A stretch of 20,069 nt of DNA from a virus. Its lineage: Duplodnaviria > Heunggongvirae > Uroviricota > Caudoviricetes. Where the stretch lies: the IMG/VR virus record IMGVR_UViG_2778261642_000012, positions 1 to 20,069 of that record, one strand, 5' to 3'. Positions within the stretch are counted from its first letter, which is position 1; the number at the start of each line of letters is the position of its first letter. The position numbers were made by a program. Positions 5,486-8,400 of the stretch are shown here, in pieces.

Positions 5486-8400
5486 ACTGGACCGCCACCG
5501 GGGACTCGAACCTCGCACACTCAACTTAAAGGGTTGACGCTCTTTCCTGATGAGCTAGTGGCGGTTGGTGGCCCTTGCTGGATTTGAACCAGCGACCTGG
5601 CGATTATGAGTCGCTCGCTCTCACCACTGAGCTAAAGGGCCGCGCGCAGAATAATAACGTTACGGAATTAATACTGCAATATCTTCAGAGGGCCTGATTA
5701 AATGCTGTTTTTCACTTGTCCACCAGCGTGTTTACTGTACTGCACCAAGTTTACGGGTACAAAAAACCCGCTCAGTGGCGGGTTGCTATCACAGCTATAT
5801 ATTTACTTATTATGCCGTTACTAACATTTATCTTCGACATATAATCGAAAACAAGGTTTGCTTAAAACTCTGCTTTCATTTTATCCGGGAATTTTTTATT
5901 TGCAGCATAATAACTACCAAGTACATAAGCGTTCATTTGCTGCTCTACATCAACCCGACATGCCGCACTAGAACAAGCTCCACTGATAAGCCCAAAAGAA
6001 CTCCCTTTAGCAGAGAGATCAGCTTTGATTTCCTCTACAGTGTTTTTCCCCATAGCAACTACACACCCTGTCACAATATATCTAGCTTTCACATCATCCA
6101 TGCTAAGGATAGTAGTTTTCGCAATTTTGCTGTATCCATCATTTTTATAAACATCCATGGCAAACGCACGGCAATCTGTATAATACGGACTTGCTTTAAC
6201 TTGCGAATACTCAGGTAATTTCATACCTGCACAACCAACTAAACAAAAACCTATCGCTGCTATTAATACCTTTTTCATTACAGTCATAACCTAGAAGCAT
6301 CATTGAAACTAATTTATTAAATAACCATCGAGTTTCTGGAATACAGACGTTAACCATCTCTCCAAAATCTAAAAGATAATAAGAAAAAATGTTTAACGCA
6401 CCAATCCATTTCATAGTTTCATGAGACATCAGGCACAAAAAAACCCGCTCAGCGGCGGGTTTTTGACATTTACCAACGGTAGACATACAAGGCCCATCGT
6501 TGAGAAAATCTTATCCATATTTTTTGAAAAATGCAAGTATCACGTCGACATCTTCGGCGAAAATTATCTATCTTGTCACTTTTCTCAATTGCGATTCAGC
6601 ATACGCTTCTTCCTGCCAGCACTTTGTAACCAGTTTATTAATAACGTCTGCATATCCTTTGTACCACTGATAATCCGTCAGGTCCGGTACCAGTTTCTGG
6701 ACATGATGCCGCGCCAGTGTGGTTGGTAAACGGCTAAACCGGTTGCCATTGCAACGCCCACAAATCTTATAAACAGGCACACCATGAAGCCGGGTTCTTT
6801 TTTCATCCAGGACAATACCTTTACCCTTACACCCTCTGCACGCTGTGCTGACTTCTCCCTTACCATGGCAATGCTGACATAGTTCCTTCACCCACTCTTC
6901 CTTGATAACAGATTCCCCGCTTCTGGAGTGTTTCACCACTTCGCGCAATACATTATGAAATCCAGTACCAGCACAATGCTCACAGCGAGCCTTACTTGCC
7001 GCAGACCTGGAATAATCAGCAAAGGCAAAATTCACAAGGTAAGGGATGATCTGTAACCGGGTTTCTTCACTCAATTTGTTCAATGTCGGGTTATCCAGTG
7101 CCATCGCGTAATTGAGCAGACCTTCAATCGCAAATTGAGGATCCTGAACACCAACTTTTGCCAGGAATAAGGCAAACCCAAGCGGTGCTTTCGACTGCAC
7201 CATCCCCTGCGCAGCCATCACATCCGTAATCGTTAAACCACCTGAGCCTGTCGCCGGTGCGTCATCGCTCAATTTTGGAGATTTTGGGGAGTAATATTTT
7301 GGTAAGGCTTCAAGGTTCATGCTCGTTCTCCACTTACGCCAGTACGCCTATTGCCAGCGCACGATCGATAAAACGAAATATCAGCTCCAGCTGGGAGCCA
7401 TACTTCTCTTCAAATGCCACGGTATCCGCATGCAGCTCGTCGTGATGCTTTCTGCACAAAGGCAACACAAAGAGGTCATGCGCTTTTGTACCCATTCCCC
7501 CCTGACCGTGGCCTATCAGGTGGTGGGGATCATCAGCAGGCTTTCCACAACATGCACACGGCTGTGTCTTAACCCAGCGTGTGTACTTTTCATTAACCCA
7601 GCGGCGACGTTTTGGGCGTAACATAAAAGACTCCGGCGACTCCGGATCCACTTTCAGCGCCAGCACCTTTTTCGCCTTATCCTGGATGATGCTGGTGGCA
7701 GGAACCGAAGGCACAAGGTCACTTTCCCGGGTGACAGACGGCACAACAGGCTTCGGTAATCTCAGTGCCTTACGGGCTGCACTTTCCGGTAAGGCATCCG
7801 CCAGGTCATTACGAATCAGCCACCAGCACAGTTCCGGCATTGTCACAACGTGACTATCATCAAAACCGAGATCCCGACGCACAACAGACAACACCCAGCG
7901 GGCACAGTTATCCGTTGCCATTGATTCCAGCCGTTCCGTGAACTGATCGCGCAGCTGGTTATCGCAGTGCCAGCACAGACGGATTGCGCCCGGCGCGTGT
8001 CGCATTGTTGTCATGTTCTCGCTGTGCCAGTCGGAATGAGGCCACTGGCAGCCTTTTTCACGAAGTAACCAGCTTTCAAGACATTCCACGCCACCAGCAC
8101 GACGGATCACTGCCTCATTGCGGAACACGGCCCGAACGGCAGGATCATCCGCCAGCGGTTGTGATGCCGCCGGAACGGCACCACTGGCGAAAGATGAATA
8201 ACGTTCCGGCTCAGGCTCCAGCAGGACACGCCCCTGCATAAACAGGGGCATCAGCTCTGAACCTGGCCTGAACAATACGATCCCCATACGCGGGGCAATT
8301 TCAGGGGTCAGTAGTGCTCTCACGGTCACCTCAATGAACGGTATCGAGCAACTTTAACAGCTCAGGGAATCGGGATTCGAAGAAATGCGGCTGCGTCTCG

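Follow-up and report, generated by a model that had tools for sequence, protein, structure and literature searches.

A lambda-family Q antiterminator gene with four CxxCxGxG motifs and, probably, a tandem pair of zinc ribbons

The stretch of DNA considered here, referred to below as the window, comprises 20,069 nucleotides (nt) of a virus of the class Caudoviricetes (IMG/VR record IMGVR_UViG_2778261642_000012, positions 1 to 20,069), and all positions are given in its coordinates. We focus on its Q antiterminator gene, which lies at 6568..7320 on the minus strand and encodes 250 amino acids (aa) followed by a stop codon. The open reading frame (ORF) begins with ATG, has the sequence GGAG 7-8 nt 5' of the start, is an allele of ydfT/quuQ and belongs to the family PF03589. 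Upstream of the gene are a DUF968/HNH (YdfU-like) gene and genes for KilA-N, RusA, a methylase, an O-like replication protein and a cI-like repressor, and downstream of it are a lipoprotein cassette, four tRNA genes and genes for endolysin, Rz and the small terminase. The gene is thus at the canonical Q position of a lambdoid prophage.

The first-pass annotation of this DNA had called the protein a Q antiterminator, and this identification is borne out by family and sequence comparisons. The protein matches PF03589 (Antitermination protein Q) with an E-value of 5e-54 and a score of 180.8 bits against a cut-off of 26.7. Its residues 1-250 align end to end with profile positions 1-252 of the 253 positions of phrog_127 ('anti-termination protein Q-like'), and its best match among PDB sequences is the lambda Q chain 7ubm_Q, which has 207 aa (phmmer, E 3e-37). 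PF03589 is the lambda Q family, which is apart from the Q21 (PF06530) and Q82 (PF06323) families (Yin et al. 2022, PMC9388147). Membership in the Q82 or Q21 family was considered and rejected, since PF06323 and PF06530 gave no match in the Pfam search.

The homology with lambda Q extends over the full length of the protein, from the N-terminal segment that forms the nozzle to the C-terminal helix. In the phmmer alignment to 7ubm_Q, residues 1-120 of the window Q fall on lambda residues 1-125, and residues 160-250 fall on lambda residues 117-207. The N-terminal segment (aa 1-60; 7141..7320, minus strand) corresponds by homology to lambda Q 1-60, the first half of the helical body (aa 61-109; 6994..7140, minus strand) is the counterpart of lambda Q 61-113, and the second half of the body together with the C-terminal helix (aa 195-250; 6571..6738, minus strand) is the counterpart of lambda Q 153-207, which contains the helix-turn-helix (HTH). 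G39 in the N-terminal segment is conserved, as are L245 (lambda L202) and T249 (lambda T206), and lambda V6 is replaced by L. An AlphaFold2 model built from 43 homologues (mean predicted local distance difference test score, pLDDT, 86.4; predicted template modelling score, pTM, 0.73) places helices at residues 3-9, 31-44 and 46-56 of the N-terminal segment and has the fold of the lambda Q family, that is, a four-helix body with a zinc-ribbon arm. By both sequence and predicted fold, then, the window Q is a lambda-family Q and not a separate structural class.

The region between the two halves of the body carries four CxxCxGxG motifs of the DnaJ type, which were located with a regular expression on the translation and are all encoded on the minus strand. 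Motif 1 (CEHCAGTG, aa 113-120; 6961..6984) is followed by a predicted long beta-hairpin (aa 121-147, with strands at 121-131 and 137-147; 6880..6960), the length of which varies across the family, and then by motif 2 (CQHCHGKG, aa 148-155; 6856..6879). These two motifs would be the first and second knuckles of an extra zinc ribbon, which we call ribbon I. Motif 3 (CRGCKGKG, aa 161-168; 6817..6840), a predicted strand-helix-strand linker (aa 169-186; 6763..6816) and motif 4 (CGRCNGNR, aa 187-194; 6739..6762) would make up ribbon II, the arm of the lambda type. In this alignment, motif 3 corresponds to lambda C118/C121, the linker corresponds to the lambda arm tip (residues 126-143, including E134), and motif 4 is the equivalent of lambda C144/C147. 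The last residue of motif 4 is R in the window Q and G in most relatives, and C234 is the sole cysteine outside the four motifs.

At least three CxxCxG motifs occurred in 0 of 200,000 composition-preserving shuffles of the sequence (two motifs occurred in 41), which excludes a chance origin of the motifs. The eight motif cysteines and G118, G166 and G192 are invariant among homologues down to 28% identity, and G153 is invariant or nearly so among the same homologues. The model PF00684 (DnaJ_CXXCXGXG) matches residues 148-193 on its positions 1-50 of 65 with 36.4 bits, compared with a gathering cut-off of 32.7. The four motifs reported by the first-pass annotation are therefore present and beyond chance, but they span residues 113-194, or 82 aa, and not the approximately 65 residues given there.

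The zinc ligands of the lambda Q arm, which we take to be C118, C121, C144 and C147 (4MO1/7UBJ structures), sit in two CxxCxGxG knuckles as well, CRDCHGTG and CGRCKGVG. Since lambda Q itself matches the PF00684 model, with 23.1 bits and thus below the cut-off, the DnaJ-like knuckle is a trait of the family, and the window Q exceeds the cut-off simply through more copies of the motif. The block consisting of motif 3, the linker and motif 4 (CRGCKGKGIVLDEKRTRLHGVPVYKICGRCNGN) is about 40% identical to the lambda arm (phmmer), the lambda segment ARCRDCHGTGRAVD agrees with the motif 3 consensus ACRDCxGRGxVxD, and C161/C164 together with C187/C190 form a putative Cys4 site at the lambda spacing, with a gap of 22 residues, as judged from the sequence.

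Overall, lambda Q (PDB 4MO1, 7UBJ-7UBN) and the window Q show full-length homology at about 34-42% identity, depending on the alignment, and have in common the nozzle segment, the HTH body, the two-knuckle arm with its 22-residue gap and the geometry of promoter, Q-binding element (QBE) and pause element. They differ in that the 207-aa lambda Q has a single zinc ribbon, whereas the window Q is about 43 residues longer; the extra residues (motif 1, hairpin and motif 2) are inserted at the junction of body and arm. In lambda Q, residues 61-113 and 153-207 form the body, a helical bundle with an HTH, and residues 114-152 form the arm, which contacts QBE positions 11-13 and whose tip meets sigma region 4; contact with the beta' zinc-binding domain (ZBD) is made by residues 110-112, 117 and 122-126, and the knuckle pair homologous to that of the window Q binds zinc in crystal structures (PMC9388147).

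To determine how the four motifs may be paired, we considered the Cys-to-Cys gaps of 167 relatives that have all four motifs. In 163 of them, motifs 3 and 4 are separated by 22 residues, which equals the distance from C121 to C144 in lambda Q, and the gap between motifs 2 and 3 is 9 residues in all 167. The gap between motifs 1 and 2 spans 10 to 59 residues. CxC replaces CxxC at motif 3 in 30 of the 167 relatives, and this variant is the first motif in some two-motif forms. The gap lengths, the CxC variant and the agreement of ARCRDCHGTGRAVD all fit an assignment of motifs 3 and 4 to the lambda zinc ribbon, with motifs 1 and 2 added on its N-terminal side.

The predicted secondary structure points in the same direction. 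In the DSSP string of the AlphaFold2 model, a strand at 110-112 leads into motif 1, which is followed by the strand 121-131, a turn of 5 residues, the strand 137-147 and motif 2. Beyond motif 2 come a strand at 156-158, motif 3, a strand at 169-171, a helix at 173-179, a strand at 184-186 and motif 4, and the unit between motifs 3 and 4 is the B1-H3-B2 arm of lambda Q (PMC9388147). No other strand of similar length is available to pair with either of the 11-residue strands that lie between motifs 1 and 2, so the two would form a hairpin, the base of which would bring these motifs together. A second AlphaFold2 model, for a long-form subfamily of 273 aa that is about 40% identical (P0298; pLDDT 83.7), shows the same strand pattern with 12-residue strands and a longer hairpin tip. 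To see whether ribbon I might be a duplicate of ribbon II, a hidden Markov model of ribbon II was run on ribbon I segments; the scores were 4-24 bits, compared with at most 5.6 for shuffles, and the aligned portion consisted of the CxxCxGxG knuckles only.

From the models and the homology with lambda Q, we infer both zinc binding and its pairing, and the most likely arrangement is two tandem zinc ribbons (motifs 1+2 and 3+4) rather than the interleaving seen in DnaJ. Ribbon II would most likely consist of C161, C164, C187 and C190 and be the direct counterpart of the single arm of lambda Q. Ribbon I would most likely consist of C113, C116, C148 and C151, which would clamp the base of the 27-aa beta-hairpin.

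A different reading of the four motifs is that they constitute a DnaJ-type cysteine-rich (CR) domain, whose zinc sites, made by motifs 1+4 and 2+3, would give a V-shaped module with two zincs that differs from the lambda arm. The DnaJ/Hsp40 CR domain (PF00684) and anti-TRAP do have repeated CxxCxGxG zinc knuckles in common with the window Q. In particular, the PF00684 score lies above its cut-off, there are weak matches to DnaJ equivalogs and to anti-TRAP, and the spacing C148-x2-C151-x9-C161-x2-C164 is like that of a single anti-TRAP site. Moreover, by sequence alone the first lambda motif can be matched to either motif 1 or motif 3, since phmmer aligned both. In DnaJ, the zinc sites are interleaved (motifs 1+4 and 2+3) and the motifs are spaced 9/14/6; in the window Q, the spacing is 27/5/18 and the predicted pairing is tandem. 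Neither the two AlphaFold2 models nor the homology with lambda Q yields the interleaved sites. The DnaJ equivalogs score 16-30 bits against cut-offs of 338-585, and the family search gave no match to a J domain or to DnaJ_C. Fold searches with the window Q recovered lambda Q and did not recover the solved DnaJ CR domains. We therefore regard a DnaJ-type domain as unlikely. A fragment of a DnaJ chaperone was also considered as an identity for the protein and rejected, since it has neither the J domain nor the DnaJ C-terminal domains.

The tandem ribbons thus remain the preferred arrangement, and this bears on what the first-pass annotation had made of the motifs. Its supposition that the cysteine-rich region is the DNA- or RNA polymerase-engaging module is probably right, by homology with the lambda Q arm. 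The 'DnaJ-like two-zinc centre' proposed there is not supported: motifs 3 and 4 are homologous to the pair that binds one zinc in lambda Q, the predicted hairpins pair motif 1 with motif 2, and the comparison with DnaJ zinc fingers that it had put forward, once run on predicted structures, led to lambda Q instead of DnaJ. Nor is the protein a 'distinct structural solution within the Q families', because it is a member of PF03589 and the lambda arm is already a two-knuckle zinc ribbon, to which the window Q adds one.

The cis elements that accompany lambda Q have candidate counterparts downstream of the gene, in the order expected for the family: late promoter with a Q site in the spacer, pause element and terminator, as far as can be read from the sequence. 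The putative late promoter (pR'-like; 6508..6536, minus strand) has the -35 hexamer TTGCAT at 6536-6531 and the -10 hexamer TAAGAT at 6513-6508. The 17-nt spacer between them (6530-6514) lies where lambda has its QBE, to which it is identical at 11 of 17 positions. At 6493..6508 (minus strand), a -35-like TTTTCT, one nucleotide, the pause element AACGAT and GGG follow in exact register with lambda TTGACT-c-AACGATGGG, which would place +1 at 6501, the first A of AACGATGGG. As a whole, TTGCAT-17-TAAGAT-TTTCTC-AACGATGGG keeps the exact register of lambda pR' and is identical to it at 32 of 44 positions, and the layout of promoter and pause element is conserved in K-12, in phage SKA5 and in an Stx2c phage.

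RNA folding indicates an intrinsic terminator (tR'-like) at 6437..6464 on the minus strand, with a stem CCCGC/GCGGG, flanking A/U pairs and a U7 tract. It ends at about +65; in the lambda locus, a hairpin with a T-run was found at positions 2372-2394, and lambda tR' presumably lies at about +190. Note that a generic promoter and terminator scan called neither pR' nor this first terminator, and both were therefore identified by the lambda register and RNA folding. The likely reason for missing the terminator is that the flanking A/T pairs, when absorbed into the stem, use up the T tract.

The Q gene and its downstream cassette are common in Escherichia coli: megablast found them in 2465 of 5426 complete genomes, where the gene is annotated 'ydfT: antitermination protein (Q)'. 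Over the 891 nt of positions 6430-7320, the window agrees at every position with the chromosome of E. coli AR_0089 (NZ_CP032265.1, 1640576-1641466), and it is therefore probably derived from the prophage there or from a near-identical one. The best-known relative, YdfT/QuuQ of the Qin prophage of E. coli K-12, is identical at 236 of 250 residues (94%), with 14 substitutions, and has the same four motifs; it also shares the upstream DUF968 gene (ydfU) and the cassette of pR', AACGATGGG and terminator. The genes farther downstream differ, being the lipoprotein cassette, four tRNAs and lysis genes in the window and cspF/cspB and essD in K-12. The co-occurrence of PF03589 and PF00684 is already listed for relatives in public precomputed Pfam annotation. 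A literature search returned nothing relevant on Q in combination with DnaJ or zinc finger, or on CXXCXGXG in combination with antitermination.

To see how common the four-motif form is, we took a census of 50%-identity cluster representatives of 185-300 aa, in which four motifs occur in 28 representatives and two motifs (the lambda/P22 form) in 10. Four motifs are thus the rule in the lambda Q family, with the two-motif lambda/P22 form in the minority. One example of the long form is the 269-aa phi80 Q (gene 17), which is 38% identical to the window Q and whose four Cys pairs follow one another as they do there, namely CDCCDGGG, CKPCNGKG, CRCHGKG (a CxC version of motif 3) and CDRCGGRG. As in the window, its GenBank record shows a TTGCAT -35 hexamer in a pR' whose spacer holds the Q site, with a terminator close by. 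It differs from the window Q in its longer linker between motifs 1 and 2 (about 46 aa) and in the sequences of its QBE and pause element. The four-motif form thus also occurs in a classical Q that has been studied, phi80 Q being the reported subject of Guo and Roberts 2004 (reference 18 of PMC9388147).

The K-12 copy raises the question of whether the window gene, like that of the cryptic Qin prophage, might be a remnant in decay that has lost antitermination and in which the extra cysteine motifs have no function. The K-12 copy does lie in a defective prophage, beside relBE/hokD and cold-shock genes, and our literature search found no functional study of K-12 QuuQ. In the window, however, both the ORF and the cis cassette are intact, and genes for the repressor, replication, lysis and the terminase are present. 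Phage SKA5, an isolated phage, has a Q that is 99.2% identical, and a Q that is 98.8% identical lies upstream of stx2c in Stx2c-converting phages. In addition, the eight cysteines are invariant down to 28% identity, and for the long-form Q of phi80, a binding site and a pR' of its own are annotated. We consider decay very improbable for these reasons. Still harder to credit is the idea that motifs 1 and 2 are a redox or disulfide module, or a DnaJ-derived peptide-binding, chaperone-like one, and not a metal site: the likeness to the DnaJ cysteine-rich domain is at the level of the motif only, whereas classical zinc ribbons have just such a pair of knuckles at the foot of a beta-hairpin, the homologous lambda Q pair binds zinc in crystal structures (PMC9388147), the protein is cytoplasmic and the other parts of DnaJ are absent.

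We therefore return to the reading in which the ORF encodes a lambda-Q-family antiterminator, an allele of QuuQ/YdfT that would act in the manner of lambda Q and whose four motifs most likely form two consecutive zinc ribbons, and we give it a probability of roughly 80%. Several points weigh against it. The -35 hexamer is weak, with 3 of 6 positions matching the consensus, and the generic promoter scan did not call pR'. The zinc pairing is drawn from a secondary-structure string and homology, and zinc was absent from the AlphaFold modelling. The hairpin of ribbon I varies in sequence as well as in length, and this speaks against one conserved contact surface. Finally, the K-12 copy of quuQ is located in a cryptic prophage, and the literature search found no experiment on either the window allele or K-12 QuuQ.

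The family membership, the conservation of the motifs, the predicted fold and the layout of the cis elements are established here; beyond these, we infer antitermination activity by analogy with the mechanism of lambda Q (PMC9388147). The HTH of the body and ribbon II would bind the QBE in the spacer of pR', just downstream of the gene, and Q would capture RNA polymerase held at the sigma-dependent pause AACGAT. The tip of the arm would steady sigma region 4 on the -35-like element adjoining the pause element, while the zinc-ribbon arm would dock on the beta' ZBD. With NusA, the conserved N-terminal 60 residues would refold into a nozzle on the RNA-exit channel and block formation of the terminator hairpin, so that Q would travel with RNA polymerase past the terminator, some 65 nt farther on, and into the genes for tRNAs, lysis and morphogenesis.

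The insertion point of ribbon I falls between the residues equivalent to lambda ~113 and ~117, and the ribbon would therefore lie inside the patch that contacts the beta' ZBD. As a matter of speculation, it would add to or re-shape this interface, or project along the upstream DNA. Our guess is that it serves as an added or altered contact with RNA polymerase or upstream DNA during loading.

Several observations were made on the genes around Q. Directly upstream, 7334-8329 (minus strand) encodes a 331-aa DUF968 protein with an HNH-like C-terminal region, the counterpart of YdfU (PF06147, a weak match to PF16784, and phrog_96 'HNH endonuclease'); the same pair of genes, DUF968 and Q, recurs in K-12 Qin, SKA5 and the Stx2c phage. 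On the other side, a cassette of low GC content (35-39%) at 5761-6461 (minus strand) encodes a predicted lipoprotein of 141 aa (5862-6287; phrog_4748, function unknown). The tR'-like terminator occurs in two 24-nt direct copies, identical at 23 of 24 positions, which flank this cassette at 6438-6461 and 5761-5784. The cassette looks like a moron inserted just after tR' with duplication of the terminator, and the same lipoprotein ORF follows the same Q in the Stx2c phage LC727877.

Four tightly packed tRNA genes (Met-CAT, Lys-TTT, Thr-TGT and Gly-TCC) at 5332-5641 (minus strand) lie in the leader of the late operon, between Q/pR' and the lysis genes, and would be under the control of Q. The tRNAs ahead of stx2c in the related Stx2c phage differ from these four, being Met-CAT and Arg-TCT. 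Between the tRNA cluster and the endolysin gene, roughly at the place expected for a holin, is an ORF of 174 aa (4297-4821, minus strand; phrog_34145). In LC727877.1, an unannotated sequence of an Stx2c-converting phage, positions 2992-8701 contain DUF968, Q, the lipoprotein, a DNA methylase, tRNAs and stx2c A and B. Because a 98.8% identical Q is so placed in this sequence, the type of Q found in the window is the antiterminator upstream of stx2c.

As a gene, the window Q is a common and catalogued component of E. coli prophages (ydfT/quuQ), the longer form was already known, and the zinc-knuckle arm is already established as the module of the lambda Q family that engages DNA, sigma and RNA polymerase. 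The solved structures of lambda Q, on the other hand, represent the short, minority architecture. Phi80 Q, K-12 QuuQ and the Q upstream of stx2c all belong to the long form, which bears an extra predicted ribbon at the surface that contacts RNA polymerase. It is possible, though in our view doubtful, that lambda Q is a reduced outlier, and that the second ribbon usual in the family, with its hairpin in the beta' ZBD patch, could be a distinct determinant of loading. If so, the extra ribbon might add a contact with RNA polymerase, NusA or upstream DNA and thereby change the specificity for the Q site or the dependence on NusA, and it would bear on the expression of stx2c, given the 98.8% identical Q upstream of that gene in Stx2c phages.

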